From: Candidatus Limnocylindria bacterium
Lineage (GTDB): Bacteria > Chloroflexota > Limnocylindria > P2-11E
Assembly: GCA_038207785.1 (NCBI GenBank)
Contig: JBBQZK010000005.1
Location: 318-64,317 of the forward strand
Length of the DNA: 64,000 bases
Reading direction: 5' to 3'
The notes under the pieces were generated by a model that saw only the letters and a list, made by a program, of their open reading frames with translations, was not told the origin of the DNA and searched no databases. Below are positions 8,320-26,886 of the stretch, in pieces. Positions within the stretch are counted from its first letter, which is position 1, and each line of letters starts with the position of its first letter. A program made the position numbers and the translations under genes.

Positions 8320-8356
8320 GCGGTGCGACTCTAGTCGGCGCACCGGGCGTGGCGGG

Positions 8357-10498
8357 CTAGAACGGGATCGTGCGGACCAGCGTGCTCTTCATCCCCAGCG
8401 TCGTGCGCAGGAACCGATCGCCCTTGAGGTCGACATGCGCGTCCGTACCGCGCACGCGGACCGAGATCGGCCTGCCGCCGGGGCTCATGTTGAACTCCAG
8501 CGAGACGAAGTCGCCGATATCGATGCCGTAGTCCTCGATGATCTGCTCGCGGATCACGGCGCCGCTGAACGAACGCGACCATAGCGTGTGGGGCATCGGT
8601 CCGCGTGCGTCGGACGCGGCGGTCTCGGCCGGGTCGGTCGCGACCGCGAGGTAGGGCCAGCCGTCCTGGCACTGCCACGTCGTGCCCACGCGCTCCGCCT
8701 CAAGGACGCAGCCGACGTTCTCGGTGATCCCGCCATCCGCGGATGAGTAGAGGGCGCGGATCGGAGCGCCGCTGTAGGTGAGGATCAGGCCGGCGGTCGA
8801 GGCCACCGCACCGGTCGTGCGCGGGCTCTCGGCCGTGCGCCCGCCATAGCACTGGTCTGCCGTGTCATCGCGCACGTCCCACGTCCGGTCGCCCGCGGTC
8901 GCCTGCCGCCACGCCGCGTACGTGCGCGCGGTGATGGCCTGCGCGCGGAGGGCTTCGATCTCCCACTGGCTCGGCATCTCGCTCGGCAGCGAGCCCTGCA
9001 TGTAGTCGTCGGACGACACGTAGTTCACGACGCGCAGAGCCGACCCATCGCGTACCGCGAACATGAAGCTGCCGCGGTAGGCGAGTCCCTTCTGGTCGAT
9101 CGCGATCGGGTCCCAGGCCTGCTTCGGCATGAGCGTGAACGACTCGTCGGCGTTGAGGCGGGACGTGCGCCCGGTGTCGTCGCGCGCGTACAGAGCGTCG
9201 CCGTCGGTCCACACGCGGAGCGATTGGTCAGGCCCAAGGTCGAAGTACACGACGCTCGGATCGAGCGTGTACACGAGGCGCATCCCGCCGGCCGAGCGCA
9301 TCCCGGCAACGTCGTTGATCGACCGGCCCACGCAGCCGGTGGACGGCGCCGAGAGCAGCACCCGGAACGGCTTCGTGATCGGCTGCTTGGCAAGCTGCGC
9401 GCCCGGGAAGTACCGCGCGACGATCTGCTCGCCCGTCAGCCGCACGCCTGTTGCGCCCTGGGCCCAGCCCTGCGCGCCCCACTGCGAGAGGCCGATGCCG
9501 TGACCCCAGCCCTTCCCGTAGAACGTGATGCCGTCCTGCACGCGCACGAGCTCATGCTTCGTGGGGACGGCGTGGCCGGAGAACCACCCGACGCCTTCCT
9601 GGACCATGTCCCAGGCGAGGATGAACGTCCCCTCGGCCCGCGGCGCTCGGACCGACACGGTGAGCGTGACCTCGTCACCCGGCTGGATGTTGTGGGGAAG
9701 CAGCGCCCGCGATCCGTCCCATTGCACCGCGACGGGCGTCCCATCGAGCCAGTGATAGCCAAGGCGGACCGGCGCCGGGCCACCTGCGGGCCACGTCTGC
9801 AGACCGGTGTTGCGCACGCGTACCTCGATCGGCGCGTTGCCGCCCGGCACGATCGTCGCCGGCACGGTGCTCGCGCCGTACCCGGCGTCGAACTCCGTGG
9901 TGACGCGGAGCGCGAAGGTGCCCGCCGCGGCATCGCTCGCGGAGAACCAGGCCTGACCTTCGCGGATGAGATCGGGCCGGACCGTGTAGACACCGGTCAG
10001 TGCGGGCGCGGTGAGCTGCATCGCGACGGTCACATCGCCGCCCGGCGCGACATCGGAGGGGATCGTCGATCGCGGTCCGTCCCAGACGACCAGGGTCCCG
10101 GCGGCGTCATACAGGTGGTAGGCAAGGCGCACGGCGTGGTCGCCTGACCGGTCCCACGCATCGTTGCCCTGATTGCGCACGGTGACCGGGATCGCGCGCG
10201 TCTCGCCGGGGGCCATCGGCGCGGGCGCCGCGGCGTAGATGGCGGTCTGCCGGACGACCTTGGGATTCAGCGCTTCGGTGGTCCGGCCGTCGGTGCGCGG
10301 CTCCCCCCGGGCATAAGCGACGGCCCGGGTCGCGACGTCGGTGACGGCGACCGCGGCCTGGCCGGCGACGCTATCGGGGTGCGTGGCGGTGAGCGATGCG
10401 ACGACAGCGAGCAAGAGAGCTGCGGTCCCGAGCCGGAGGAGGAGCAGCGGTCGCCTTCCCATCGTTGATGGGAACGCGGTGCCGCCCGCCGTCGACAC
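8357..10498 (-). CDS. SpoIID/LytB-domain lytic transglycosylase-like protein with two N-terminal Ig-like (NBR1-like) repeats; start uncertain (10462 alternative)
   Basis: Two RNxG..W..RL.YH..D...WDG repeats, GWGHGIGLSQWGA, VNYV..DY..G...EM..W..EAL.AQAITARTYA. Confidence 0.8.
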   Translation of the reverse strand: MSTAGGTAFPSTMGRRPLLLLRLGTAALLLAVVASLTATHPDSVAGQAAVAVTDVATRAVAYARGEPRTDGRTTEALNPKVVRQTAIYAAAPAPMAPGETRAIPVTVRNQGNDAWDRSGDHAVRLAYHLYDAAGTLVVWDGPRSTIPSDVAPGGDVTVAMQLTAPALTGVYTVRPDLIREGQAWFSASDAAAGTFALRVTTEFDAGYGASTVPATIVPGGNAPIEVRVRNTGLQTWPAGGPAPVRLGYHWLDGTPVAVQWDGSRALLPHNIQPGDEVTLTVSVRAPRAEGTFILAWDMVQEGVGWFSGHAVPTKHELVRVQDGITFYGKGWGHGIGLSQWGAQGWAQGATGVRLTGEQIVARYFPGAQLAKQPITKPFRVLLSAPSTGCVGRSINDVAGMRSAGGMRLVYTLDPSVVYFDLGPDQSLRVWTDGDALYARDDTGRTSRLNADESFTLMPKQAWDPIAIDQKGLAYRGSFMFAVRDGSALRVVNYVSSDDYMQGSLPSEMPSQWEIEALRAQAITARTYAAWRQATAGDRTWDVRDDTADQCYGGRTAESPRTTGAVASTAGLILTYSGAPIRALYSSADGGITENVGCVLEAERVGTTWQCQDGWPYLAVATDPAETAASDARGPMPHTLWSRSFSGAVIREQIIEDYGIDIGDFVSLEFNMSPGGRPISVRVRGTDAHVDLKGDRFLRTTLGMKSTLVRTIPF

Positions 10499-11067: not shown

Positions 11068-11917
11068 TGCCCTCGCGCTCCCGGCACGCGCAGCTTCGGG
11101 AACTTCGCTCGCAGATCCGTCGCACCGACCTGTGAGATCGCCTCGGGCTCGGCGAGCCCCGCGAGGGTGTAGCGCCCGAGCGCTTTGAAGGTGATCCCGT
11201 CCGCGCGCGGGAGTCGAGCGCGTCGCGGGCCGCGGTCGAGAGGAGGATCTGGCCGCCGTGCCCCGCGGAACAGACGCGCGAGGCGGTGTGCACGCCGATC
11301 CCGACGTAGCCGGTCTCGGACAGGGCCGTCCGTCCGGTGTGGATGCCGATGCGGACGCAGACCTCGACACCGTCCGGCCAGGCCCGCGACTGCAGCCCGC
11401 GCTGGATGGCCAGCGCGGCATCCAGCGCCTGAGTCGGCTTCCGGAATGCGGCGAAAAACTCGTCTGCCCGCGCATCGACCTCGTGGCCACCCGCCTTCCG
11501 CACCCCGGCGCGGATGAGCGTGCGCACCTCGCGAAGCAGCTTCGCGTACCGGTCGCCGAGCGCGCGGAGCAGCGTGGTCGATCCCTCCATGTCGGTCATC
11601 AGGAAGGTCACGGTGCCACGCGGGAGGCCTGCGACATCCGTTGCGCGGCCCCGGGTTTCGGCTTGCAGCCGCTCCTTCCGCAGCTGCCCGTCGAAGAAGC
11701 CGATCGGCACGATGCCGTAGCGCTTTGCCGCCGCGAGGAGCCGCTGGCGGGCTTTCTCTCTCGCGGCATCGTCTTCGAAGACCGTCTGATCGAAGCGCGA
11801 CAGCGCATTCCGGACGTGCGAGGCGTCGTGGATCGGCAGGCGCCGACGGCCCGCCGCGTCGACGTACGCGAACGCCGTCGCCGGGAGCTTCGCGCGGTCG
11901 GTGGAGCTAAGTGGCAT
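11064..11917 (-). pseudogene. DUF6582-like domain fused to a class III nucleotide cyclase domain; frameshift at about 11202-11209 (real or assembly error)
   Basis: TFLMTDMEGST, RIGIHTG, VHTASRV, GGQILLS. The family-like tail DGITFKALGRYTLAGLAEPE..FPKLR continues in another frame to TAA at 11064. Confidence 0.7.
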
Positions 11918-12000
11918 CTCTCGATTATTGGCCGTTCCGCCGGCCGTGGGGTCGTATGCTCGCGCCGCCCGGCGCCGCGCCGAGGCCGACGGAGGATGCC

Positions 12001-12396
12001 GTGAACTGGGTTGCGATCATCGTCGCGATGGTGGTGAACATGATCATCGGCTCATTGTGGTTCTCACCGCTGCTGTTCCAGAAGCCCTGGACGGCCATGC
12101 GGGTCGACAAGACCCCGATGAGCGGCGTGGCGAGCCCGATGCTCTATGTGATCACGGCCGTCGGGGCGCTCGTGAGCGCGATCACGCTCGACTGGATCAT
12201 CGGCCTGGCCGGCGCGCGCTCGCTCCTGGGTGGCGCGATCATCGGCCTGTACGCGGGCCTCGGGTTCGTCGCTCCGGCGATCCTGTCGGACAACCTGTTC
12301 AACGAGCGCCCGTTCAAGCTGTACCTGATCGTCGCCGGATTCCCGGTGGTCGGGCTCCTGATAATGGGCGCGATCATCGGCGCCCTCGGGGCGTAG
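12001..12396 (+). CDS. DUF1761-family membrane protein
   Basis: NWVAIIVA...IGSLWFSPLLFQKPW with four TM segments. Confidence 0.75.
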   Translation: MNWVAIIVAMVVNMIIGSLWFSPLLFQKPWTAMRVDKTPMSGVASPMLYVITAVGALVSAITLDWIIGLAGARSLLGGAIIGLYAGLGFVAPAILSDNLFNERPFKLYLIVAGFPVVGLLIMGAIIGALGA

Positions 12397-12431
12397 CCCA
12401 GCGACACCGCCGCGCGGCTACGCTGCCGGCG

Positions 12432-13682
12432 GTGTCAGGTCCGTCGCTCTGGCGCCACGCCGATTTCCTCAAGCTCTGGGTCGGGCAGACCATCTCGGAG
12501 CTCGGCTCCGGCGTCACCCGTACGGCGTTGCGACTCGTCGCGCTCCTGACGCTGGGCGCGGGCGCGGCCCAGATGGCGTACCTCGTGGTCGCCGCGTCCA
12601 CCGGTGTGCTGCTCGTCGGCCTTGTCGCGGGCGCGTGGGTCGACCGCCTCCCACGCCGGTCGATCCTCATCTGGACGGATGTGATCCGGGCGGGGCTGCT
12701 CTTCTCGATCCCCGTTGCAGCGGCCGCCGGCGCTCTGCGTATCGAGCACCTCTACGTCGTCGCGTTCGTCGAGGCGTGTCTCGGCACGCTGTTCGACTCC
12801 GCGTATCACTCGTACCTGCCGTCCCTTGTGGGGGTGGACCGCCTGGTGGAGGGGAACGCGAAGCTTTCGCTGAGCTCGTCCGTGGCCGAGGTCGGCGGCC
12901 CGGGCCTCGCCGGAGCGCTCGTGCAGGTGGTGAGCGCGCCGTTCGCCATCCTTGTCGATGCGGTCTCGTACGTCGTGTCGGCGGTCTCCCTCATCTTCGT
13001 CCGCGCACGCGAGGCACCGCGTACGCGTGCGCTACGACAGGGCATCGGCCGGGAGATCGCGGAGGGCCTGCGGTTCGTCCGGCGCCATACCCTGGTCTTC
13101 CCGATCGCAGCGAGCTCGGTGTCCGAGCACTTCTTCGGCTCGTTCTACGCCGCGCTCTATGGCCTCTATCTTCTGGACGTCCTCCGCCTGACGCCACTGC
13201 TGCTCGGCCTCGTGATCTCGGCTGGCGGTGTCGGTGCGTTCATCGGCGCCTCGTTCGCGGGCAGGGTCATCCGGCGGCTCGGCATCGGACGTTCGATCCT
13301 CGTCATGATGCTGGCGAACTCGGCCATCGGCGTGCTCACGCCGCTGGCCGCCGGACCGATCGCGGTCGCGACGCTCATGGTCTTTCTGCCGCAGCTCATC
13401 GGCGACGGCATGAACACGATCCAATGGATCGCCCAGGACAGCGTGGTCCAGAGCGCGGTGCCCGATCGTGTGCTCGGTCGCGTCAGCGCCACGCTCGACG
13501 TGCTGTCACATGGTGCTGCACCGCTCGGCGCGCTGGTGGCCGCGGCGATCGCTGAGACGTACGGCGTGCGCTCGGCGATCGGTGTCGCCTGGATCGGTGG
13601 CCTCGCCTCGGTGCTGTTCATCGTCTTCTCGCCGCTCCCGCGGCTGCGATCGATCGACGCCGACGCCGGGACCGCCGTTTAG
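12432..13682 (+). CDS. MFS transporter
   Basis: LWRHADFLKLWVGQTISELG, GAWVDRLPRR, 12 TM segments. GTG at 12432 with TACGCT 7 nt upstream. Confidence 0.9.
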   Translation: MSGPSLWRHADFLKLWVGQTISELGSGVTRTALRLVALLTLGAGAAQMAYLVVAASTGVLLVGLVAGAWVDRLPRRSILIWTDVIRAGLLFSIPVAAAAGALRIEHLYVVAFVEACLGTLFDSAYHSYLPSLVGVDRLVEGNAKLSLSSSVAEVGGPGLAGALVQVVSAPFAILVDAVSYVVSAVSLIFVRAREAPRTRALRQGIGREIAEGLRFVRRHTLVFPIAASSVSEHFFGSFYAALYGLYLLDVLRLTPLLLGLVISAGGVGAFIGASFAGRVIRRLGIGRSILVMMLANSAIGVLTPLAAGPIAVATLMVFLPQLIGDGMNTIQWIAQDSVVQSAVPDRVLGRVSATLDVLSHGAAPLGALVAAAIAETYGVRSAIGVAWIGGLASVLFIVFSPLPRLRSIDADAGTAV

Positions 13683-13900
13683 CTTGCGGGCGCGACGAAC
13701 CGGATGCTGAGCATCGTGCGGCAGCGGGGGCAGTTGAGCGTGGCGAGGGACGATTCCCGCTGGCCGAGAGCCGGGACGAACTTCAGGCCGTCGGCGTCCG
13801 AGACGTGCCGGTTGCATTCCGGACAGCGAAGCTCGCCGCGGTCCAGCTCCGCGTGGGTCGCCTGCAGATCAGCAAAGCCAACTCGTTTCTTGCGCCCCAT
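13679..13900 (-). CDS. Small zinc-ribbon protein (CPEC...CPRC)
   Basis: SD GAGG before the ATG at 13900. Two CxxC motifs in 73 aa. Confidence 0.7.
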   Translation of the reverse strand: MGRKKRVGFADLQATHAELDRGELRCPECNRHVSDADGLKFVPALGQRESSLATLNCPRCRTMLSIRFVAPAS

Positions 13901-14154
13901 GTCCTCGCTCCGATCACGTTCCGATTCGCGTGGATGATGCGACCACCTGGAGGCTGGCCGATGACGAATTCCACCCGTAGCCACCGCGCGCATGCCAGGT
14001 GACGTTTCGCGCGCACGCGACCGCGTGTAGGTAATGCTACCGCGTGTCCTGACGTTAGTTTGGCGTCGGCACGCCAATGGGGGCGGGGTCGTTCAATAGG
14101 CCGCTCCTCACGCCGCGAGGAGCCCCAGCGGGGCAGACCCGATGACGCTTTCGG

Positions 14155-15048
14155 CTAGCGGCGCATCTCCTCCAGGTATCGCAGGCTGCGCATTGCGTCA
14201 TCACGCGCGGTCCCAGGCGGGTCATCGGCACGGGACACGCGATCCTGTTCGACGACGAACCATCCGTCGTATTGCGGGCCTATGGCTGCGAAGACACCAC
14301 TGAAGTCGATATCTCCGGCGCCAAGCGGGGCGAAGGCGCCCTGGGCGACGGCAGCGGCGAACGAGCTGCGGGACGCGCGCGTTCGCTCGAGCACAGCTTG
14401 TCGCGCGTCCTTCAGATGCACGTGAGCGATGCGCGCCGCGTGCCGCCGCGCTACGTCGGCGGGATCGCCGCCGCCATACGCCACGTGACCTGTATCGAGG
14501 CACAGCCGGACCAGTGACGGATCGGTCCGCCCGAGCATGGTGTCGATCTCCCCTGGGGTTTCGACGTACGTCGCTCCGTGCGGATGGAACGCCGTCACGA
14601 GACCCCGGGCGAGCGCCCGGCGGGCGACCTCGTTCGCGCCCTCCGCGAAGACGCTCCACTGATCCTGCGTGAGGCCGGCGCTCCCGTCCTGCGGCACGCG
14701 TCCGGCGGTGGCCTGGCGCCGCTGGTCGCCGGCATCCGCGAGGACCAGGATCGTGGCCCCGCTGTTCGCGAGCAGATCGATCAGCGTGTCGGCCGCGGCG
14801 ATCGCGCTTCCGCGCAGGGCCGGATCGTGAAGCGTGAGCGGACAGAAGGCGCCGACGAGCTCGAGGTCGTGCCGAGCGAGCGAGCGGCGCAGTTCGGCGG
14901 GATCCTCAGGGAGATACCCGAGGGGACCGAGCTCGACGCCGCGGTATCCACAGGTGGCGACTTGGGTGAGAAATGTTTCGGGGGCCGGCTGCAGACCGCC
15001 GGTCGCCTCGCTGACGCCCCAGCTGACCGGCGCGTTCGCGATCCTCAC
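14155..15048 (-). CDS. Sugar-phosphate isomerase/epimerase TIM barrel, IolE (inosose dehydratase)-like
   Basis: ANAPVSWG, GVELGPLG, FHPHGATYVET, CLDTGH, HVHLKD, VVEQD. GTGA-coupled to the upstream gene. Confidence 0.8.
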   Translation of the reverse strand: MRIANAPVSWGVSEATGGLQPAPETFLTQVATCGYRGVELGPLGYLPEDPAELRRSLARHDLELVGAFCPLTLHDPALRGSAIAAADTLIDLLANSGATILVLADAGDQRRQATAGRVPQDGSAGLTQDQWSVFAEGANEVARRALARGLVTAFHPHGATYVETPGEIDTMLGRTDPSLVRLCLDTGHVAYGGGDPADVARRHAARIAHVHLKDARQAVLERTRASRSSFAAAVAQGAFAPLGAGDIDFSGVFAAIGPQYDGWFVVEQDRVSRADDPPGTARDDAMRSLRYLEEMRR

Positions 15049-16250
15049 GCGCCCGCAGTCGTGGGGACCGCGGCATCGGGATCGATCGCGGCAGCCACCT
15101 CGGACACGGCCGCGTCGTAGGCAAAGGCCCGTGCCAAGCCCGGAGGAACGCGCAATGTGACGCGCGCTCCCACGGCGAGCCGGTGATCGTGCTCGAGGCG
15201 CAGCCTCCACTGGGTGTGGTCGTCCAGCTCGACGTTGTATTCGGTCCGATCGCCGAGGAAGGCCGCGCGCACGACCCGCGCTTCGATCACACCAGGATCC
15301 TCTGCAGTCGTGCCCTCCGCGATCCGGATGTCCTCGGGCCGGACGAACACGATGGCCTCTGCGCCTGCCGTCGGCGGGTTCGTGCCGATGGAGCAGACGA
15401 GCCGACCGCGGCCGCTTTGCACGCTCGCGCGCCCATCCTCAAGTGACACACACTGGCCGACGAGGCGGTTCGGGTTTCCAACGAACGCCGCCACGAATGC
15501 GGTCCGCGGCGTCGCGTAGACCTCGGTCGGCGTGCCGATCTGATGGACGACACCACCCTCCATGACCGCGATGCGGTCCGACAGACTGAGCGCCTCCTCT
15601 TGGTCATGGGTGACGTAGATGGCGGTGAATCCGAGGCGCGCCTTCAAAGACGCGATCTCCTCGCGCATCTCCAGGCGCAGCTTGGCGTCGAGATTGGAGA
15701 GTGGCTCGTCGAAGAGGACCACTGCCGGCTGATAGACCACCGCGCGCGCGAGGCCGACCCGCTGCTGCTGGCCGCCGGAGAGCTCGCGAGGGAAGCGATC
15801 CTGCAGACCCTTCAGCCCGACCATCGTCACGGTCTCCATCGCGCGGCGATTGCGCTCGGCGCGAGCAATGCCGCGGACGCGCAACGGATAGGCCACGTTG
15901 TCCAACACGCTGAGATGTGGAAACAGCGCGAAGTTCTGGAACACCAGGCCGATGTTGCGCTTGTGGGTCGGCACGTCCGTCACGTTCTGTCCGCCGATCC
16001 AGACCTCGCCCGCGTCCGGTCGCAGGCCGCCGGTGATACAGCGGAGGGCGGTGGTCTTGCCGCAGCCGCTCGGGCCGAGGAGGGTGACGAGCTCTCCGCG
16101 CCGGACGACGAGGTCGATGCCTCGGCACGCCACGAAGGTGCCGAACCGCTTGACCAAGCCGCGGAGCTCGATCATCGCGGCCGCTGCGGGCTCATCCGTC
16201 GAATGCGCCGTTGTGACTGGTCGGCTCGGCAGGCCGGCGTCGCGGGTCAC
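15045..16250 (-). CDS. ABC transporter ATP-binding subunit (PotA-like, TOBE)
   Basis: GPSGCGKTT, LSGGQQQR, LFDEPLSNLD, YVTHDQEEA. Confidence 0.92.
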   Translation of the reverse strand: MTRDAGLPSRPVTTAHSTDEPAAAAMIELRGLVKRFGTFVACRGIDLVVRRGELVTLLGPSGCGKTTALRCITGGLRPDAGEVWIGGQNVTDVPTHKRNIGLVFQNFALFPHLSVLDNVAYPLRVRGIARAERNRRAMETVTMVGLKGLQDRFPRELSGGQQQRVGLARAVVYQPAVVLFDEPLSNLDAKLRLEMREEIASLKARLGFTAIYVTHDQEEALSLSDRIAVMEGGVVHQIGTPTEVYATPRTAFVAAFVGNPNRLVGQCVSLEDGRASVQSGRGRLVCSIGTNPPTAGAEAIVFVRPEDIRIAEGTTAEDPGVIEARVVRAAFLGDRTEYNVELDDHTQWRLRLEHDHRLAVGARVTLRVPPGLARAFAYDAAVSEVAAAIDPDAAVPTTAGA

Positions 16251-17260
16251 TTCGCACCCACTTTCACGGTGCGCAGGTCGCGGCGTGACGCGGTGGCTGC
16301 CTCGCAGAGGACCAGGGCGGCCAATGCGTCCGCGCCTGTGACGGCCACCGGCCGGTCGTCCCGGACCGCGCTCGCAAAGTCGTCCAGCTCGAGTGCATAC
16401 GCGAGCGGGTAGCGCTCGGTGAAGTCCGTGACGTAATCGACGGCGGCCTGTCCGGGCGTCAACCACTCCACGTGAGCGCGACGGTGGTTACCGATCCGAG
16501 CGGTGGCGAGCGAGCCCATGACCTCGGTCGAGCATTCGTAGCCGTAGCCGGCTGCTCGGCTGTTATCGATGACGCCGACGGCCCCAGCGGCGAAGCGCAC
16601 GGTGACGACTGCCGTGTCGATGTCGCCGATCGACCGCGCCGCCTCGGAGACAGCCGCGCCGACCGCGGTCACCTCGGTGATCTCCCCGACCATCCATCGT
16701 GCCGTATCGAAGTCATGGATCGTCACGTCGGAGAAGAAGCCACCCGACGTCCTCATGTACTCGACACTGGGCGGGCGCTTGTCGCGCAACGAGGTCCTGA
16801 AGAGGTAGACCTCGCCGAGCTCACCAGCGCGGATCCGGTCGTTGGCGGCCTTCCAGTCCGGATCGAACCGGCGGTGGAAACCGACCTGCAGCTTGACGCC
16901 CGCGGTGCTCGCGGCCTCGATCGCCGCGCGCGTCGCAGCTTGATCGAATGCGATCGGCTTTTCGCAGAAGATGTGCTTCCCGGCCGCGGCGGCCTGGATG
17001 ACCATCGGTGCGTGCATCGGGGTGGGGGTCACGATCGCCACGGCGTCTACGTCCGCGCGCCCCAGTGCATCCTCGAACGAGGTCGACCACGGCACGCCCA
17101 GCTCGTCACCCACCTGCCGGGCGACGTCTCCGATCGCGTCGACGACCATCACGAGCTCCGCTGATCGTGTTCGGTACGCGAGGTTCTGCGCATCGAACCG
17201 CCCCATCCGGCCCAAGCCGGCGACGGCGATACGGGTCCGGCCCTTCTTGGTGTCAGTCAT
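16247..17260 (-). CDS. iolG: Inositol 2-dehydrogenase-like Gfo/Idh/MocA oxidoreductase
   Basis: GLGRMG, FCEKP, GFHRRFDP, DVTIHDFDTARW. Confidence 0.75.
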   Translation of the reverse strand: MTDTKKGRTRIAVAGLGRMGRFDAQNLAYRTRSAELVMVVDAIGDVARQVGDELGVPWSTSFEDALGRADVDAVAIVTPTPMHAPMVIQAAAAGKHIFCEKPIAFDQAATRAAIEAASTAGVKLQVGFHRRFDPDWKAANDRIRAGELGEVYLFRTSLRDKRPPSVEYMRTSGGFFSDVTIHDFDTARWMVGEITEVTAVGAAVSEAARSIGDIDTAVVTVRFAAGAVGVIDNSRAAGYGYECSTEVMGSLATARIGNHRRAHVEWLTPGQAAVDYVTDFTERYPLAYALELDDFASAVRDDRPVAVTGADALAALVLCEAATASRRDLRTVKVGAK

Positions 17261-17272
17261 CGCGTCCTCCCC

Positions 17273-18442
17273 CTACACAGCGCGCATCGAGCTGCGCTCT
17301 GACGCTGAAATGCTCGTCGCACGTCCCGTCGCGGCCGCCGACAGGATCGCATCGCAGATGACCGCCGCGCGGTACCCATCGTCGAAGCTCGCTTGATCGT
17401 CACTCAGAGCTCGCTCGTGGATGAAGGCATCCAGAAAGTCGCGCCATTGGTGCGCGAATGTGTGCTCCCAGCCGAGGATATGTCCCGGGTTCCACCAGAT
17501 CCCGAGGAACGGGTGGTCGCGTTCGGTCACCAGCACGTCGCGAAAGCCGCCCAGGCCACCGATGTCATCCTGCGCCAGATACACGTGCAGCCGGTTGAGG
17601 TCCTCCAGGTCCCACCAGAGCGATCCCGCCGAACCGTTGAGCTCGATGCGTTGACGGCCCTTCCAGCCGGTCGCGCATCGCGAGGCTTCGAGGGTCGCGA
17701 GCGCCCCGCCGGCGAGCTCGAGGACCGCGGCGTACGCGTCCTCATTTTCGACGGGGAGCATGCGGTCGCTGTGGTCCGGGTCGGGGCGCTCATCGATGAA
17801 GCGGCTCACCACCGCCGAGACCGACACCGGCTCGCCTGCGAGGTAGCGCATGAGGTCGAGGAGGTGTGAGTAGTCACCGACTGCCCCATTCGACGGGCGC
17901 GACGCCGTGAACCGCCAGCTTCGAGCCACCTCGGGCGAGCGGGCCCAGTCCTGTAGGTACGTAGCCCGCACGTGGTGCACGTCGCCAAGCCGGCCCCTCG
18001 CGACGAGCTGGCGAGCCAGCCGGATCGCAGGAACAAATCGATAGTTGAAGCCGCACGCGTGAAGGGCACCCGACGCACGCGCGCAGCGCAGCATTCGGCC
18101 GGCCTCTGCGGAGTCGCCGCCGAGTGGCTTTTCGCAGAGCACCGCCTTGCCGGCCTCTAAGGCGGCCGTCGCGGCGACCTCGTGGTTCTCGGTCGGGCTC
18201 AGCACAGCGACCACGTCCACGTCAGGGTCGGCGACGACCTGCCGCCAGTCCGTCGACCACCGTGCGAACCCAAGGTCGCGGGCGCTCCGTTCGACCGCGT
18301 CGGGATCGCGGCCGGCCACGCTCACGAGCCGGAGCGCCCGGGGGAGGGGGGCGACGTGGCCGATCGTGAGGATCGCGTGCGCATGTACGCGCGCCATCCA
18401 GCTGTGCCCAATGAAGCCGATGCCGATCGGCGATCCGGCCAC
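17273..18442 (-). CDS. Gfo/Idh/MocA oxidoreductase
   Basis: CEKPLG, GFNYRFVPA, YLQDW, GDYSHLLD, GWEHTF. Confidence 0.88.
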   Translation of the reverse strand: MAGSPIGIGFIGHSWMARVHAHAILTIGHVAPLPRALRLVSVAGRDPDAVERSARDLGFARWSTDWRQVVADPDVDVVAVLSPTENHEVAATAALEAGKAVLCEKPLGGDSAEAGRMLRCARASGALHACGFNYRFVPAIRLARQLVARGRLGDVHHVRATYLQDWARSPEVARSWRFTASRPSNGAVGDYSHLLDLMRYLAGEPVSVSAVVSRFIDERPDPDHSDRMLPVENEDAYAAVLELAGGALATLEASRCATGWKGRQRIELNGSAGSLWWDLEDLNRLHVYLAQDDIGGLGGFRDVLVTERDHPFLGIWWNPGHILGWEHTFAHQWRDFLDAFIHERALSDDQASFDDGYRAAVICDAILSAAATGRATSISASERSSMRAV

Positions 18443-18443
18443 G

Positions 18444-19355
18444 CTAGATCGGACGCGCCACGGGATTGGACCAGGCCCGGCGCCCGTCGCGATCTACGAC
18501 AGTCACGCGGAACCATGGCGCATCCAAGCCGGAGGCATCGAGTACGACCTCGACGAGGTTCGCGCCCTTCACCTGGACGACCGCGGATCCGTTCCCCCGG
18601 GCGAAGACCCAGGCCGCGGGGGAGCAGCTGACAACGAGCCGTCCGGAGCGGTCGATCGAGATGTCTCGGATCTCCGGTCCGATGCTCGAGTAGTACGCCC
18701 CTGCCTTGAGCGCCGCGACGATCTGAACGGCCGACCGCTCTTCGGTCTTCACCCAGACCCACCCAGCGAGCGCGTCCTCGCGATCGTCCGTGAAGTGGGC
18801 GTCGTCTGTGGCGCATGCGGTGTACTGCCCGCCCTTGAGCAACAGTCGATCGAAGACGTGCCAGCTGTCGGCGCGGTCGTTCAGCCCTGCCGCCGTCGCA
18901 TTCCAGGCCTCGATGGCATGGATGGGTCCGAGGGTCCGGATCTCGTCCTCGCCGAGGTTGTACCAGGCCGGATGATTCGCGACCACGAATGCGCCGGCGT
19001 CGAGCGCGCGCCGCGCGATCCCTGGACCGGTCTCATCCGGCGAGGGCGGGGCGAAGTCCGCGGGTAGACCGATCCCGAGCATGTGCCAGTGCTCGCCGGA
19101 CTCCACCCGTCCGGCATGCAGCTCCGCCCCGCGAACGGTCACGAAGCCGTCGCGGTCGAAGGGCGTCGCGTCAGTGATCGGATAGCCGAACCGATCGAGG
19201 AAGTGATCGGAGAGACACAGGAAGTCGTAGCCGGCCTTCGCGTAGATGTCGCAGATGGCCTCCGGCGTCAGGCGACCGTCGGAGCGTGTCGAATGGCAGT
19301 GCAGATTCCCACGCCGGAAGCGCCCAGGCAGCGCGAACGGGTTGCTCCAGCTCAC
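18444..19355 (-). CDS. PHP-domain (CehA/McbA-like) metallohydrolase
   Basis: RGNLHCHSTRSDG, LSDH, GAELH, NHP, ATDDAH. Confidence 0.85.
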   Translation of the reverse strand: MSWSNPFALPGRFRRGNLHCHSTRSDGRLTPEAICDIYAKAGYDFLCLSDHFLDRFGYPITDATPFDRDGFVTVRGAELHAGRVESGEHWHMLGIGLPADFAPPSPDETGPGIARRALDAGAFVVANHPAWYNLGEDEIRTLGPIHAIEAWNATAAGLNDRADSWHVFDRLLLKGGQYTACATDDAHFTDDREDALAGWVWVKTEERSAVQIVAALKAGAYYSSIGPEIRDISIDRSGRLVVSCSPAAWVFARGNGSAVVQVKGANLVEVVLDASGLDAPWFRVTVVDRDGRRAWSNPVARPI

Positions 19356-20212
19356 AGACCCTTCACTCCTCCGAGGATCGCTTCCGGCCGGATCTGGCGC
19401 TGGATCAGCACCAGCAGCGCGAGCGACGGCAGCAGCAGGATGACGGAGATGGCGCTTGCCACCTCTTGGAAGCCGTCGCCGATCGCAAGATACGTCTGGA
19501 CCGTCAAGGTGAGCGTGCCGGGGCCGTAGGTCACCAGCGTCAAGGTGAATTCGTTCAACGAGGTGATGAGCGCGAATAACGTCGCGGCCATGAGGCCCGG
19601 GAGCGCCATCGGCATCGCCAGGTGCACGGTGTTCCGTAGCCAGCTGCCACCGCAGACCCGGCCGGCCTCGAACACCCGCTCGTCAAGGGATTCGAAGGTC
19701 GCGGTCATGATCAGCACGACGAACGGCATCGCCAGCACCGCGTGCGCCAGCGCGACGCCGATGTGGGTGTTCACCAGACCGAGGGCGTAGAACTCGCGTG
19801 ACGCTCCGAGGGCGAAGGTGATCGGCGGGATCGTCTTCGGGAGCAAGACGAGGGTGAGCAGCAGGCTCTTCGCCGGAATGCGACGTCGCGCGATCGCCCA
19901 CGCGGTGGGCACACCGATGATCAGGCTGATCAACACGCACAGCGCCGCGATGAGGAACGAGTTGCCGAGGACCTGCGGAATGTGGGTGACGTTCAGGGCC
20001 CACTCGAACCAGCGGAGGGTGACGGATTCGGGGAACAACCGGCCGCCGAACCAGCCTTGGCCGAACGCCATCGTCAGGATCGCGATGAACGGGCTGACCA
20101 CGTAGAGCAGAAAGGCGAACAACAAGGTGTACGCGAGGATCCGGCCGAGGTGCGGGACCGCCGGCATCCCCCGGGTCCTGGCCGGCGTCATCGGAAGCGC
20201 GATCTGGCTCAT
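19352..20212 (-). CDS. ABC transporter permease
   Basis: TM segments and EAA-like motif FEAGRVCGGS. Confidence 0.88.
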   Translation of the reverse strand: MSQIALPMTPARTRGMPAVPHLGRILAYTLLFAFLLYVVSPFIAILTMAFGQGWFGGRLFPESVTLRWFEWALNVTHIPQVLGNSFLIAALCVLISLIIGVPTAWAIARRRIPAKSLLLTLVLLPKTIPPITFALGASREFYALGLVNTHIGVALAHAVLAMPFVVLIMTATFESLDERVFEAGRVCGGSWLRNTVHLAMPMALPGLMAATLFALITSLNEFTLTLVTYGPGTLTLTVQTYLAIGDGFQEVASAISVILLLPSLALLVLIQRQIRPEAILGGVKGL

Positions 20213-21108
20213 GCCCGGACCCGTCGCCGAGGCGGGCTGGACAGCCGCAGGTACACGGTGATCACCACGAGCGAGACGACCGCCATCAGCATCGCAAGCG
20301 CGCTGCCGCGCGCGAAGTGCTGGAACGTCGATGCCTCGGTATAGATGACGACGGCGAGCGGTCGCAGATCACCGCCGGCGATGATCGGCACGTTGAATGC
20401 GCCGAAGGCCAGGAGGAACGTGAGGATCGATCCGGAGCGGATGCCCGGCCAGCTCAGGGGGAATGTCACGCTCCCGAATACCTGCCAGGGGCTGCCGCCG
20501 GAGACTCGTGCAGCCTCTTCGACGTTCGTGTCGAGGCCTTCGATCGCCGAGAGCGTCGTCAGGATCGTGTACGGCGCGTAGAGCCAGGTGTAGAAAAGGA
20601 GCAGTCCCGGCACCGTGTAATCGATCGACAAGGGCCCTCCGCCCGGGGCCAGGTGGCTGAAGAGCCGGTTCAGCCAGCCATTCTTGTCCCAGATGATCAG
20701 GAGTCCGAGCGCGCTGATGAGCGCGAGCACCATGAGCGGCGTCAGGATCAAGAGCCGGATGAGTCGATGGCCACGCATCTTCTGTCGGAGGGTCAGCGCC
20801 AGCGGTACGGCGAGCAACACGGACAGGATGGTCGTACCGACCGCGAGCAGGGTGGTCAGGGCCAGGGCGCCGAGGTACTTCTCCGAGGTGAGGATGTTCT
20901 GATACTGCGCGAGCGTTGGGCCGACGCCCGCGTCGGTCTCGAGGCTCGTGAGGAACGTGACCCCGAGCGGGTAGGCGAAGAACGCCAGGATGTAGGCGAT
21001 CGCGGGGCCGAGCATGAGCACCGTGAGGGCGCGACCTTCGCCCCCGTTGCCACGGCGGGGTGCCGCGGCAACGGGGGCGGACGCAACGGCGATCTGCTCA
21101 GCCGCCAT
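20209..21108 (-). CDS. ABC transporter permease
   Basis: TM segments and EEAARVSGGS motif. Confidence 0.88.
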   Translation of the reverse strand: MAAEQIAVASAPVAAAPRRGNGGEGRALTVLMLGPAIAYILAFFAYPLGVTFLTSLETDAGVGPTLAQYQNILTSEKYLGALALTTLLAVGTTILSVLLAVPLALTLRQKMRGHRLIRLLILTPLMVLALISALGLLIIWDKNGWLNRLFSHLAPGGGPLSIDYTVPGLLLFYTWLYAPYTILTTLSAIEGLDTNVEEAARVSGGSPWQVFGSVTFPLSWPGIRSGSILTFLLAFGAFNVPIIAGGDLRPLAVVIYTEASTFQHFARGSALAMLMAVVSLVVITVYLRLSSPPRRRVRA

Positions 21109-21111
21109 CGG

Positions 21112-22281
21112 TCAGGGCTTGCCTACGTACGTCCCGCCATTCTCCTTCAGCCAGTTGTAGGACGGGAGATTGCCGAGCGGGATGCGCCTGGCCTTCACGG
21201 TGTCCCACGCTGGGATCCGGTCATTGATCTTCGCAGGCACCGCGTCGAACTTGTTGATCGCCATGTACTGATACATCTCGGTCAGCATGCGGAGCTGCGT
21301 CTTCTCCGAGATGAGCCAGTTGATCAGCGCATTCGCATTCTTCTTCTGATCAGCGGAGGCATTGGCGGGAGCTGCCAGGTAGGCCGCCCCGCCGTACATG
21401 CCCGTCGGGAACACCGATGCCTTCACGGACTGTTGGAGCAACCCCTGGTCCGCGGACCAGAGCGTGAAGTCGATCGCATACTCGGTGATCCACACATCAC
21501 CGCTCTTGAACTGCTGGAACAGCGTGTTGGGCTCACCCGCGAGCGGTTGGTAGAAGTTCGACGAGAACTCCTTGAACTTCGCGAGGCCCGCGGCCCATTC
21601 CGGCGTGGTCTGCAGTGGATCGGGGAATGTCTTCGAGAAGTCCACGCCTGCGCCGATAAGGAAGTCCCGCATCATGAGTCGCCCGCCGCCCGAGGCGGCA
21701 TCCGGTCGGATCATGCCGATGTGGCCCTTCCACTCGGCCCGGCGCGCATAGAAGTCGTCCCACGACGTCGGCGGTTTCGAGATCTTTGCCGAGTCGTAGA
21801 CGATGCCGAACTGGTCGCGCCAGAACGGTGTTGCCCGACCCGTCGTCGCTACGCCGAACGCTTCTTTCAGATCGTTGGCGTCGATGAGCGACAGGTTCGG
21901 GATCTCCGCTTTCGCATCCGTCAGCGTGCTGAACGGGATCTTCGCGTCGATCATGTTGCCGAGGACGTCTGGCTTGAGCAGCGTGAGACCCACGTCGCCC
22001 TGGCCGGCGCTCTGCGCCTTGAGGCGCGTGAGGAGATCGGCACCCGACCCCGGTAGGTAGGAGATCTTGATCCCCAGCTCCTTCTCCGCGTCAGGAAGGA
22101 TCTTCGCGAAGAACGCCTGGAAGTTCGCGCCACCCGCCGAATCCAGGAATGTGATCGACCCGTTGCTTCCCGGAGCCGGCAGCGCGGAAGCTCCAGTAGC
22201 CGCAGGGGAACCCGCCCCGGCACCGCCACACGCACCAACGACCAGCATGGCCACGATCCCGACGATGAACGATGTACGCAT
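21112..22281 (-). CDS. ABC substrate-binding lipoprotein (PotD/AfuA-like fold)
   Basis: SD GGGAGG before the ATG at 22281. Lipobox LVVGAC, GIVYDS..PPTSWDD. Confidence 0.85.
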   Translation of the reverse strand: MRTSFIVGIVAMLVVGACGGAGAGSPAATGASALPAPGSNGSITFLDSAGGANFQAFFAKILPDAEKELGIKISYLPGSGADLLTRLKAQSAGQGDVGLTLLKPDVLGNMIDAKIPFSTLTDAKAEIPNLSLIDANDLKEAFGVATTGRATPFWRDQFGIVYDSAKISKPPTSWDDFYARRAEWKGHIGMIRPDAASGGGRLMMRDFLIGAGVDFSKTFPDPLQTTPEWAAGLAKFKEFSSNFYQPLAGEPNTLFQQFKSGDVWITEYAIDFTLWSADQGLLQQSVKASVFPTGMYGGAAYLAAPANASADQKKNANALINWLISEKTQLRMLTEMYQYMAINKFDAVPAKINDRIPAWDTVKARRIPLGNLPSYNWLKENGGTYVGKP

Positions 22282-22317
22282 TTTCAACCTCCCGCGTTGC
22301 ACGGCACTATGCTCGCC

Positions 22318-22330
22318 GGAATGATATTCC
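22318..22330. promoter_or_regulatory. Candidate RpiR/IolR operator GGAA-N5-TTCC in the divergent promoter region
   Basis: GGAATGATATTCC flanked by an ACTATGC/GCATAGT inverted repeat. Confidence 0.5.
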
Positions 22331-22336
22331 TCAGTC

Positions 22337-23023
22337 GTGCATAGTTTGGCAATGGCCTTCCAATCACCTGTCACGGTTGCCTTCGACTGGAATGGAACGC
22401 TCGTCGCCGATGCCGCGCGCGCCTGCGCGGCCATGTGCGTGGTGCTTGAGCGCCGGGGACTTCCGCAGCTGGAGCGGGACCGATTTCATGAGGGATTTCG
22501 CCTGCCGCTCGGGGCCTGGGTGGCCGATCTTGGTGTGTCGGTAGCGGATGTCGGCGGCGCTGTCACGGAGTGGAACTCCGAGATGGGCCTGCGGCCAGCC
22601 GAGCTCTCCGCCGGAGCAGCGGACGCCATAGCGGCGATCCGCTCGCTGGGCATCCGTTGCGGGGTCGTGAGCGCAGCGGCCCGTGACGCGGTCCAGCGCG
22701 ATCTCGACCGACCTGCGTTGCGTGGCTTCGCCGATCAGCTCGACTTCGTCATCGGCGACGCGGAACCGAAGCGGGCTGCGTTCGCCAAGCTTGCGGGTGT
22801 CCGACCGCGTGACTTCGTGTACGTCGGCGATACCGAATACGACATGCTGGAGGCTCGCGCAGCCGGCGTTCGCTCGATCGGATTCGCCGGGGGATACCGT
22901 CCCCGCGGCGCGCTGGCGGTGGCCGGGGCCGAGTGGATCATCGATCAGCTCACCGAGCTGCCCTCCGTGCTGGACCGGATCTGGGCCGACGTTCTTCCTG
23001 TGGGTTCCGGTGGCTCGCGATGA
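22337..23023 (+). CDS. HAD-superfamily phosphatase (start may be 22352)
   Basis: FDWNGTL (DxN variant of motif I), VVS, YVGDTEYD. Confidence 0.85.
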   Translation: MHSLAMAFQSPVTVAFDWNGTLVADAARACAAMCVVLERRGLPQLERDRFHEGFRLPLGAWVADLGVSVADVGGAVTEWNSEMGLRPAELSAGAADAIAAIRSLGIRCGVVSAAARDAVQRDLDRPALRGFADQLDFVIGDAEPKRAAFAKLAGVRPRDFVYVGDTEYDMLEARAAGVRSIGFAGGYRPRGALAVAGAEWIIDQLTELPSVLDRIWADVLPVGSGGSR

Positions 23024-23909
23024 CCTCAGCGGACGCGTTCAGTGCGCGACGGGCCGCGGCCTGCGATCGCATCGCCACGGCCACGTAGAGCGCGTCCAAC
23101 AGGCAGAGGTGGGCGAGACGGCTTGCCATCGCCTCATGCCGGAAGGATTGCTCCGGCCCGCCACTCACGAGCACGATGTCAGCGAACCGTGAGATCTCGG
23201 ACCGCGCAAAGCTTGTGACCGCGACCGTCGTCGCGCCGACGTCCCGGGCCGCGCGCAGGGTCATCACTGTTTCGCGCGTCGCCCCGGTGTGCGTGATTGC
23301 GACGCAGACATCGCCGCGGCGCAGCAGTCGCGAGGCCACGTGCTGGACGTGCACATCGGGTGGCGCATCAGCCTGGACGCCGATCGTCCGGAATCGATAT
23401 GCGGCATCTTGTGCGAGCGGGGCCGAGGTACCCACACCGACGAATAGGACTTGGTGCGCGCGAGCGATGGCCTTCACTGCCTCCTCGAACCGATCGGGAT
23501 CGACGGTCCGCACACCTTCCGCCACGGTGTGAGCTGCGGCTGCGAACACCTTGAGCAGCACCGTGCCCGAACCGTCTCCGTTCGCGATATCTCCGTGGTG
23601 AAGCGGCTGTGCCCGAACCTCACCGGCGAGACTGACCTGCAGATCGCGAAAGCCGAGGAACCCCATGCGTTGGCACGAGCGGATGACCGTCGACGGTGAT
23701 GTCTTCGCACGTCGGGCGAGCGCCTCCGCGGTCGCGGTGACCGCGGAGGCCGGATCGTCGAGGATCGCGCGAGCCACGCGCGTGTCGCTGGGCGACAGCG
23801 AGGGCATAAGGCTCCTGATCCGCGGGACGACACTGCCCTGGAAGGTCGGCGCCGATCGACGACGGTTCGGCAGACCGCCGGCGGCCACCTTGCTTCGCTG
23901 CCGCGTCAC
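22950..23909 (-). CDS. RpiR/MurR-family transcriptional regulator (HTH plus SIS); start uncertain
   Basis: LSPSD.RVA, TSPSTVIRSCQRMGF.GF, GVGTSA, ITHTGAT, AVTS. Confidence 0.9.
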   Translation of the reverse strand: MTRQRSKVAAGGLPNRRRSAPTFQGSVVPRIRSLMPSLSPSDTRVARAILDDPASAVTATAEALARRAKTSPSTVIRSCQRMGFLGFRDLQVSLAGEVRAQPLHHGDIANGDGSGTVLLKVFAAAAHTVAEGVRTVDPDRFEEAVKAIARAHQVLFVGVGTSAPLAQDAAYRFRTIGVQADAPPDVHVQHVASRLLRRGDVCVAITHTGATRETVMTLRAARDVGATTVAVTSFARSEISRFADIVLVSGGPEQSFRHEAMASRLAHLCLLDALYVAVAMRSQAAARRALNASAEVIASHRNPQEERRPRSGPARRAAR

Positions 23910-24015
23910 ACGCAGGCCTGCACGAACCGCAGACTAACGACATCCTCGTCTCGTCAGGGGCGTCCGACTGGTCTATGAGTAGTTCTGAGCGCTGACGCAA
24001 TCGCGTTAGCCCACA

Positions 24016-24057
24016 GAGCCGGCGCTCGGACTCGAACCGCCGGCCGACGGCGTACGG
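24016..24057 (-). repeat. Degenerate tRNA-Thr 3'-half copy (att-like scar A)
   Basis: 28/42 ungapped identity (hand count) to 27193-27234. Confidence 0.55.
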
Positions 24058-24290
24058 TCCATCCATACGTCGCGACTGTTCGCCAGCGTTCGCCCGTTCG
24101 GGTCTGTACGTCGGTGGCAGCTCGTCGCCGTCCGCCGGCGTTGTGGCCGGAAACTATCGTCAGCTCGACGCGCGGGGATCGCGAAGAGGTGCTTGCGTTG
24201 TTACCGATACGTGCATTCGGCTCTTCTCGAAAATTGGGCACCCGACGCGGGCGACCGAATTGTCCTGGACTGTGCGACGACGACGAACTA

Positions 24291-24341
24291 AGCCGACGGG
24301 CAGACTCGAACTGACGACCGGCGGCTCCGGCGGTTTACGAA
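24291..24341 (-). repeat. Degenerate tRNA-Thr(CGT) 3'-half copy (att-like scar B)
   Basis: 32/42 identity to the tRNA 3' half, plus a 9-nt insertion. Retains TTCGAG and the anticodon loop TTCGTAA. Confidence 0.7.

Positions 24342-24477: not shown

Positions 24478-26886
<2,409 letters not shown>

Follow-up and report, generated by a model that had tools for sequence, protein, structure and literature searches.

Several described bacterial systems for the use of inositol and of phosphorylated carbohydrates can be set beside the locus analyzed here. In Thermotoga maritima, the ABC transporter InoEFGK is said, in work of Rodionova and colleagues from 2013, to be specific for myo-inositol phosphate, with InoE as the binder. 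Genes for IolG, IolM, IolN and IolO accompany it. The T. maritima inositol regulon is listed with a transporter of this name, and the bacterium does not grow on free inositol (PMC3750489). Here, we analyze a 64-kb stretch of DNA from a Candidatus Limnocylindria bacterium, a soil member of the Chloroflexota (~69% G+C; hereafter, as a whole, the window), in which an eight-gene operon on the minus strand (ORFs listed within 14155-22434), a divergent gene for a HAD hydrolase and a gene for an RpiR-family regulator form a unit. We propose, with a probability of about one half and from sequence comparisons, that this operon would serve the uptake and breakdown of a phosphorylated inositol compound, imported whole and dephosphorylated in the cytoplasm. 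Inositol monophosphate, inositol 1,2-cyclic phosphate and an inositol phosphodiester such as glycerophosphoinositol are the candidate substrates.

Among public sequences, the locus has its nearest relative in a metagenome-assembled genome of Candidatus Limnocylindria (Chloroflexota), with a substrate-binding protein (SBP) 89% identical. The Thermotoga system, like the present operon, combines genes for inositol dehydrogenases with an E-F-G-K transporter made of one SBP, two permeases and one ATPase. Moreover, the IolO-linked SBPs of Thermotogota are the specific nearest outgroup of the present SBP family and their locus also contains a HAD and a metallo-beta-lactamase-type (MBL) hydrolase. The two systems differ, however, in that SBP identity is only ~22%, in that IolM, IolN and IolO stand there and the canonical dehydratase route through IolE in the window, in the regulator (ROK there, RpiR here) and in the PHP metallohydrolase and Asn-variant HAD that belong to the present unit. 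Canonical myo-inositol catabolism (IolG, E, D, B, C, J, A) shares with the window homologues of its first two enzymes, whereas its five later enzymes are not found there, and it relies on RbsB-type or MFS transporters in place of the other transporter class and the two built-in phosphoesterases seen here. The initial annotation had held that inositol ABC systems use RbsB-type SBPs; this generalization is contradicted by InoEFGK (PMC3750489), and the SBP_bac_8-type SBP located beside IolO in Thermotogota likewise counts against it.

The unit is composed of the following features, given by their positions in the window.

22950..23909, minus strand: RpiR/MurR-family regulator, HTH_6 and SIS domains (Pfam, NCBIfam)
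22352..23023, plus strand: HAD-IA hydrolase, divergent from the operon (Pfam HAD_2, 4.6e-13)
22318..22330, no strand assigned: candidate RpiR operator, palindrome GGAAT-GAT-ATTCC (sequence)
21112..22281, minus strand: lipoprotein SBP, 389 aa (Pfam SBP_bac_1)
20209..21108, minus strand: ABC permease 1 (BPD_transp_1, 1.7e-14)
19352..20212, minus strand: ABC permease 2, with a 4-nt overlap with permease 1 (BPD_transp_1, 9.6e-11)
18444..19355, minus strand: PHP-family metallohydrolase, cytoplasmic (NCBIfam NF038032)
17273..18442, minus strand: Gfo/Idh/MocA dehydrogenase of the levoglucosan-dehydrogenase / scyllo-inositol-dehydrogenase type (PDB matches)
16247..17260, minus strand: IolG-like, probable myo-inositol 2-dehydrogenase (TIGR04380, PDB matches)
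15045..16250, minus strand: ABC ATPase with TOBE domain (ABC_tran, 1.1e-34; TOBE_2, 2.9e-14)
14155..15048, minus strand: IolE-like, probable scyllo-inosose dehydratase, a divergent family member (TIGR04379, PDB, tree)

All ten genes of the initial annotation, that is the eight-gene minus-strand operon, the divergent HAD gene and the RpiR gene, are present where it had placed them. Three of the listed open reading frames (ORFs) opened too far upstream and their starts were corrected: the SBP starts at ATG 22281, with a GGGAGG ribosome-binding site, and at 389 aa has the same length as the database protein P0001, while the ATPase (GTG 16250) and the IolE-like enzyme (GTG 15048) start within GTGA overlaps with the stop codons of the IolG-like and ATPase genes, respectively. 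For the HAD, the ORF opens at GTG 22337 and an ATG is located at 22352; RpiR has alternative later starts at 23888 or 23807. From the SBP gene onward, the junctions of the operon are a 3-nt gap, two 4-nt overlaps, a 1-nt gap, a 12-nt gap and two further 4-nt overlaps. With the corrected starts, neighboring genes all overlap by 4 nt or lie 1-12 nt apart, and the eight genes (SBP, two permeases, PHP, Gfo, IolG-like, ATPase, IolE-like) constitute a single, translationally coupled operon in which the inositol genes are interleaved with, and coupled to, the transporter genes. A crude scan of 13600-24300 revealed no promoter-like site and one terminator-like match, weak and on the opposite strand. 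The 3' ends of the convergent HAD and RpiR genes overlap by 74 nt (22950-23023); a convergent overlap of 86 nt is likewise found in L254, an 87%-identical relative (3810-3895), and this arrangement is thus conserved.

Related loci share a core module made of RpiR, a HAD with the motif DWNGT, the series SBP-permease-permease-ATPase and one metallohydrolase, either PHP or a PhnP-like MBL. This core, with its DWNGT HAD, is kept in Limnocylindria, in other Chloroflexota and in Gaiellaceae. The closest relatives (87-90% SBP identity) carry RpiR, HAD and SBP-permease-permease-ATPase-PHP and no inositol genes; compared with them, the window has two dehydrogenase genes between PHP and ATPase and the IolE-like gene after the ATPase. 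These three inositol genes are a lineage-specific addition to the core module, which the initial annotation had overlooked. At 50-66% SBP identity, other Chloroflexota and L005 (a JGI metagenome contig) retain HAD and PHP, and Gaiellaceae retain RpiR and HAD with an MBL in the position of PHP. In each of the eight loci with an SBP identity of at least 50%, a HAD gene adjoins the transporter, and five of the eight also have PHP or MBL. Among them, two cultured bacteria, Paenibacillus rhizophilus 7197 and Paenibacillus sp. BR2-3 (L011 and L012), possess an SBP-permease-permease-ATPase series 54-56% identical to that of the window, with a HAD-IIA phosphatase gene immediately upstream of the SBP gene. 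Further upstream in L011 are genes for a glycerate kinase, a GntP permease, CdaR and an alpha-glucosidase.

Some variants of the module were also encountered. In L253, a relative with 90% identity, a class-V aminotransferase-like gene overlaps that of PHP and is followed by an SDR gene (7677-9768); this aminotransferase is cysteine-desulfurase-like, not PhnW, and suggests different downstream chemistry in that strain. In L249 (7399-9383) and L250 (1425-3409), a 65%-identical PHP gene lies between a 201-aa TOBE-only and a 102-aa MgtC fragment, in what looks like the remnant of a decayed module; in the Gaiellaceae loci L002 and L003, the MBL gene is followed by an MgtC gene of full length.

Regarding the metallohydrolase slot, the alternation of PHP in Limnocylindria and other Chloroflexota (18444-19355 in the window) with MBL in Gaiellaceae (14193-15002 in L002, 14109-14960 in L006, and L014) is a non-orthologous replacement. 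PhnP is the best family match of the Gaiellaceae MBL (143 bits, below cutoff), and as PhnP is a cyclic phosphodiesterase, this likeness would argue, by analogy, for a diesterase role of the slot enzyme. In C-P lyase pathways, according to what is reported of the work of Ghodge and colleagues from 2013, PhnP and a PHP-family cyclic phosphate dihydrolase both hydrolyze a 1,2-cyclic phosphate. MBL and PHP would thus alternate in one slot of a pathway there as they do here, the module's MBL being most PhnP-like; by contrast, no C-P lyase genes are present here, and an inositol (cyclic) phosphate would take the place of phosphoribosyl cyclic phosphate. On the strength of this resemblance, a cyclic or diester substrate appears attractive. 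A further parallel is offered by UgpBAEC with GlpQ/UgpQ, in which a phosphodiester headgroup is imported by an ABC transporter and then cleaved, although its SBP belongs to an unrelated family and a GDPD-family diesterase, in place of which PHP or MBL stands here, does the cleavage. For glycerophosphoinositol transport, as for PHP cyclic phosphate dihydrolases, the literature searched yielded nothing of use.

The PHP protein itself gave no match in a Pfam search and passes the cutoff of the NCBIfam CehA/McbA metallohydrolase model NF038032 (94 bits, cutoff 80). Its trinuclear metal site is complete and invariant (H19, H21, D26, H51, E78, H91, H128, D185 and H187), the ligands having been assigned from the spacing in YcdX. 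The predicted structure (pLDDT 88.5) associates a PHP barrel with a C-terminal beta-sandwich, and all its Foldseek matches, including 3e38, RNase AM, TM0559 and Cv1693, are PHP proteins, with a pAp phosphatase among the nearest structures. The family to which it belongs is unnamed and very large (>3,700 matches). Neither PHP nor HAD has a signal peptide, whereas the SBP is a lipoprotein; with a lipobox on the SBP and no signal on PHP and HAD, any phosphoester has to enter the cell intact.

The HAD contains motifs I-IV, including the nucleophile Asp. Throughout the subfamily, however, motif I departs from DxDx(T/V) and reads DWNGT, with Asn at the Asp+2 position of the general acid/base, a peculiarity that the initial annotation had not noticed. 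This DWNGT is found in all HADs of the Chloroflexota, Gaiellaceae and L005 loci, down to 28% overall identity. Such a motif recalls PhnX, and the core module could be read as a device for scavenging phosphorus from a phosphonate or a generic organophosphate, made of a PhnSTUV-like transporter, a PhnX-like HAD (DW.GT without Asp+2) and a PhnP-like MBL, to which the inositol genes would be an unrelated addition. Indeed, models of 2-aminoethylphosphonate (2-AEP) transport are the best NCBIfam matches of permease 1 and ATPase and the second best of the SBP, the HAD weakly matches phosphonatase models, the MBL has PhnP as its best match, and PHO4 and PhoU genes lie just downstream of the module in L006. 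We nevertheless hold this reading to be quite unlikely, as every Phn match is far under its cutoff, the cap region of the HAD lacks the lysine of the PhnX Schiff base, PhnW is missing (on its model, the Aminotran_5 gene of L253 reaches only 26 bits) and the transporter genes have those for inositol interleaved among them and translationally coupled to them. The L006 genes, for a PHO4 phosphate transporter and a PhoU-like protein (15171-16789), directly follow this Gaiellaceae-type module and hint at a link to phosphorus supply.

The SBP matches Pfam SBP_bac_1/8 and carries the lipoprotein signal MRTSFIVGIVAMLVVGAC. A sequence search of the PDB gave no relative of this protein. Its predicted structure (pLDDT 88.8) is about equally distant in Foldseek from MalE, PotD, FbpA, AfuA and PhnS (12-19% identity), and the matches span binders of maltose, polyamines, iron, hexose phosphates (AfuA and the glucose-6-phosphate-binding VcA0625) and 2-AEP; being equidistant from so many classes, the fold is uninformative on the ligand. 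Near-invariant Arg, Lys and His residues and two Gly/Ser-rich helix N-caps (GANFQ and GHIGMIRPDAxSGGGR) characterize the family and, in the model, would fit an anion-binding site. As judged by profile searches, the family is rare and sharply bounded, with 23 matches at E<=1e-30 and 121 at E<=1e-10 among 1.84 billion cluster representatives. With its best NCBIfam matches at 51.5 bits (cutoff 203) and 27.7 bits (cutoff 310), the SBP remains below the equivalog level of PotABCD, AfuABC/FbpABC and PhnSTUV, and the permeases reach 106 and 87 bits where 247 and 326 would be needed, the 106 bits of permease 1 being on a 2-AEP permease. That the transporter would be an ordinary polyamine (PotABCD) or ferric-iron (AfuABC/FbpABC) importer standing among unrelated genes is, in our view, highly improbable. 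It is true that homologues have been automatically named 'putative spermidine/putrescine transport system substrate-binding protein' and that the fold search also retrieved structures of PotD and FbpA; yet all Pot and Fe models score far under their cutoffs, the PDB contains no sequence match, the family profile does not match control SBPs, and conserved synteny links the family to phosphoesterases and inositol enzymes across phyla.

The AfuABC systems (AfuA of Actinobacillus, VcA0625 of Vibrio) deserve separate consideration. They resemble the present transporter in the type-II SBP fold of the PotD/FbpA class and in the idea of importing a phosphorylated carbohydrate intact, but no sequence similarity to them is detectable and their gene neighborhood is another one. 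If the substrate were, as in these systems, a non-cyclitol sugar phosphate or a glycosyl phosphate, the Gfo, IolG-like and IolE-like enzymes would form a route of keto-sugar oxidation and elimination comparable to the levoglucosan or 3-keto-glycoside pathways. The presence of AfuA and VcA0625 among the fold matches would agree with such a route, as would the best NCBIfam match of the Gfo dehydrogenase, which is to levoglucosan dehydrogenase (247 bits, cutoff 650), and the sub-cutoff scores of the two Iol-like enzymes. In the PDB, the Gfo dehydrogenase matches best 4h3v (1.6e-82), then levoglucosan dehydrogenase and scyllo-inositol dehydrogenase, and homologues of 40-42% identity are found in Methylomirabilota directly upstream of homologues of the SBP, together with an IMPase gene. 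The IolG-like protein has only inositol dehydrogenases as its closest structural relatives, namely 3ezy (8e-64), which is T. maritima TM0414, 4hkt (2e-58) and 3euw (5e-50). Its catalytic motifs EKP and D..H are present, FCEKP and IHDFD aligning with those of the three structures, and it is 39% identical to IolG of a canonical iol cluster. As for the IolE-like protein, it matches IolE in the PDB (3cny, 4e-31) and is placed by phylogeny inside the IolE clade (support 100/99), apart from IolO-type and other TIM-barrel enzymes; there, it falls in a 28-row subclade (100/93) of which 17 members are IolD-adjacent, on a rather long branch (0.86). A sugar phosphate thus has against it the nesting of the IolE-like protein among IolE proteins, well away from the other sugar enzymes with a TIM barrel, the inositol dehydrogenases that are the best structural relatives of the IolG-like protein, neighborhoods of the family that are inositol-specific (IolN, IolD) and the lack of any sequence-level AfuA match for the SBP; we regard this substrate class as unlikely.

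The wider SBP family was then considered through neighborhood maps from which spurious antisense ORFs (clusters 3, 8, 13 and 18) were excluded, ORF calls being noisy in high-GC loci. Phosphoesterases and inositol enzymes recur in these neighborhoods: full flanks were available for 45 loci, of which 22 contain a phosphoesterase and 25 an inositol-type enzyme, with both present in 15. The phosphatases beside the transporter vary between phyla and comprise HAD-IA, HAD-IIA, HAD-IIB and IMPase proteins, in addition to PHP or the PhnP-like MBL. In Gaiellaceae, the module is followed by genes for LacI, for two Gfo-family dehydrogenases (IolG and Gfo), and for IolD and IolC. SBP homologues of 35-45% identity, found in Anaerolineae, Methylomirabilota, Spirochaetota and Acetobacteraceae, neighbor IolN (312 bits, cutoff 245), IolM-like and IolG proteins, PfkB kinases and an IolO-like epimerase that, in the PDB, matches TM0416 best, in loci that also include a HAD-IIB gene directly after the ATPase gene and IMPase-family phosphatases. 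IolM, IolN and IolO, present beside these homologues, are absent from the window. Among the matches listed for a TM0414-type IolG query, 80 loci were fetched, most of them with IolD/IolE, and none contained the SBP family, which is thus a specialized partner and not a general inositol transporter.

More distantly, Pseudothermotoga and other Thermotogota (among the matches listed) have IolO followed by SBP-permease-permease-ATPase, with HAD-IIB upstream and an MBL nearby. Their SBP_bac_8-type SBP aligns with the family profile with an hhalign probability of 99% at 22% identity. On this profile, the Thermotogota SBPs beside IolO score 56-70 bits, control SBPs from the same set of loci give no match, and no other out-of-family SBP among those tested matches. 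A PDB sequence search with the Thermotogota SBP gave no match either. By these profile comparisons, they are specific but distant relatives, in a different subfamily.

The same neighborhoods raise the question of free inositol as the substrate. The transporter would then take up unphosphorylated myo- or scyllo-inositol, and PHP and HAD would have other roles, such as clearing internal inositol phosphates or phosphorylated intermediates, or making the effector of RpiR. The carbon-skeleton enzymes all resemble users of unphosphorylated inositol, and several distant loci (e.g., L024, L034, L038 and L043) combine a full IolG/IolM/IolN/IolO set and PfkB kinases with no phosphatase detected. Despite this, HAD is present in all eight close loci and PHP or MBL in most of them, even where the inositol genes are missing, the regulator contains a SIS domain of the sugar-phosphate-sensing kind, and the SBP has many conserved basic residues; in addition, T. 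maritima, with its related system, does not grow on inositol (PMC3750489). Free inositol strikes us as an unlikely substrate for this transporter.

The regulator has an N-terminal HTH_6 domain (Pfam, 1.5e-14), a C-terminal SIS domain (3.5e-18) and a match to the NCBIfam MurR/RpiR model (1.5e-52), and its gene adjoins the SBP module in L002, L005, L006, L009 and L254. In the window, the palindrome GGAAT-GAT-ATTCC sits in the 70-bp divergent intergenic region, nested within ACTATGC...GCATAGT. The same GGAATATCATTCC is found in L009, the 89%-identical Limnocylindria relative. In the Gaiellaceae loci L006 and L014, the operon led by RpiR is preceded by a GGAA-N5-TTCC site, GGAACGAAATTCC. A palindrome of the GGAA-N5-TTCC type is common to alphaproteobacterial IolR and to the locus of the present regulator. 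The initial view of a single catabolic unit under the neighboring RpiR is supported.

As to the substrate, the order of the steps, the effector and the fate of the IolE product, we infer a scheme built on a phosphorylated inositol compound. The lipoprotein SBP would capture an anionic compound outside the cell and the two permeases and the ATPase would import it intact. In the cytoplasm, PHP (in relatives, the PhnP-like MBL) would open or cleave a phosphodiester and HAD would strip the remaining phosphate. The IolG-like and Gfo dehydrogenases would oxidize the myo- or scyllo-inositol so freed to scyllo-inosose, from which the IolE-like enzyme would then remove water. RpiR would repress both divergent promoters at GGAAT-N3-ATTCC and be released when its SIS domain binds the phosphoester. 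This scheme retains part of an earlier proposal, in which a charged cyclitol derivative was imported and stripped inside the cell: the cytoplasmic PHP and HAD, the lipoprotein SBP and the phosphatase and inositol-enzyme neighbors make a phosphorylated cyclitol the best-supported reading, while the aminocyclitol then also considered has no support, there being no aminotransferase or deaminase in the operon or in the core module of its relatives.

A more specific version, which we consider unlikely enough to be put forward only tentatively, is that RpiR-HAD(DWNGT)-ABC-PHP/MBL would represent an undescribed route by which inositol phosphodiesters or inositol 1,2-cyclic phosphate would be taken up intact. 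PHP or the PhnP-like MBL, as a cyclic phosphodiesterase, and then an unusual HAD without acid catalyst would act in series, and in the present lineage the module would have been fused to the oxidation of myo- and scyllo-inositol. PI-specific phospholipase C, the turnover of lipid headgroups and soil organic phosphorus would be the sources of such substrates.

Several observations weigh against the import and breakdown of a phosphorylated inositol compound. The closest relatives carry the core without inositol genes, so that the core substrate need not contain inositol. The closest solved structures to PHP act on nucleotides or lack characterization, and the HAD, without a general-acid Asp, may be a poor or atypical phosphatase. 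Both Iol-like enzymes are under their equivalog cutoffs, the IolG-like protein just so (335 bits on TIGR04380, cutoff 355) and the IolE-like protein more clearly (203 bits on TIGR04379, cutoff 290). With tblastn at E<1e-3 and queries from a canonical cluster, no IolA, B, C, D or J was found in the window, which bears out the earlier remark that iolD/B/C/A are absent from it and leaves the IolE product without a visible fate. Finally, about half of the distant loci show no phosphatase, so that part of the family may transport free inositol.

Outside the unit, the cluster is flanked by a gene for an MFS_3 transporter (11901-13682, plus strand) and, on the other side, by a KatG catalase-peroxidase gene (24478-26829, minus strand). 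The wider neighborhood encodes an M81/MlrC peptidase, a SpoIID-domain protein, a nucleotide cyclase, a Rieske oxygenase and a GH57 branching enzyme. None of these genes appears to be related to the operon.

In the usual accounts, no pool of organic phosphorus in soil is larger than that of the inositol phosphates, and bacteria are generally thought to use secreted phytases and then to import free phosphate and inositol. If our proposal is correct, the ABC import of a whole inositol phosphoester, followed by its dephosphorylation in the cytoplasm, would be a strategy unlike that of secreted phytases, and one that would occur in abundant uncultured soil groups (Limnocylindria, Gaiellaceae). The cultured Paenibacillus strains, with their 55%-identical transporter, provide an experimental handle on this prediction. 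It would, moreover, give a function to a rare SBP family without solved relative, to a large unnamed PHP family and to a HAD subfamily devoid of the usual acid catalyst.

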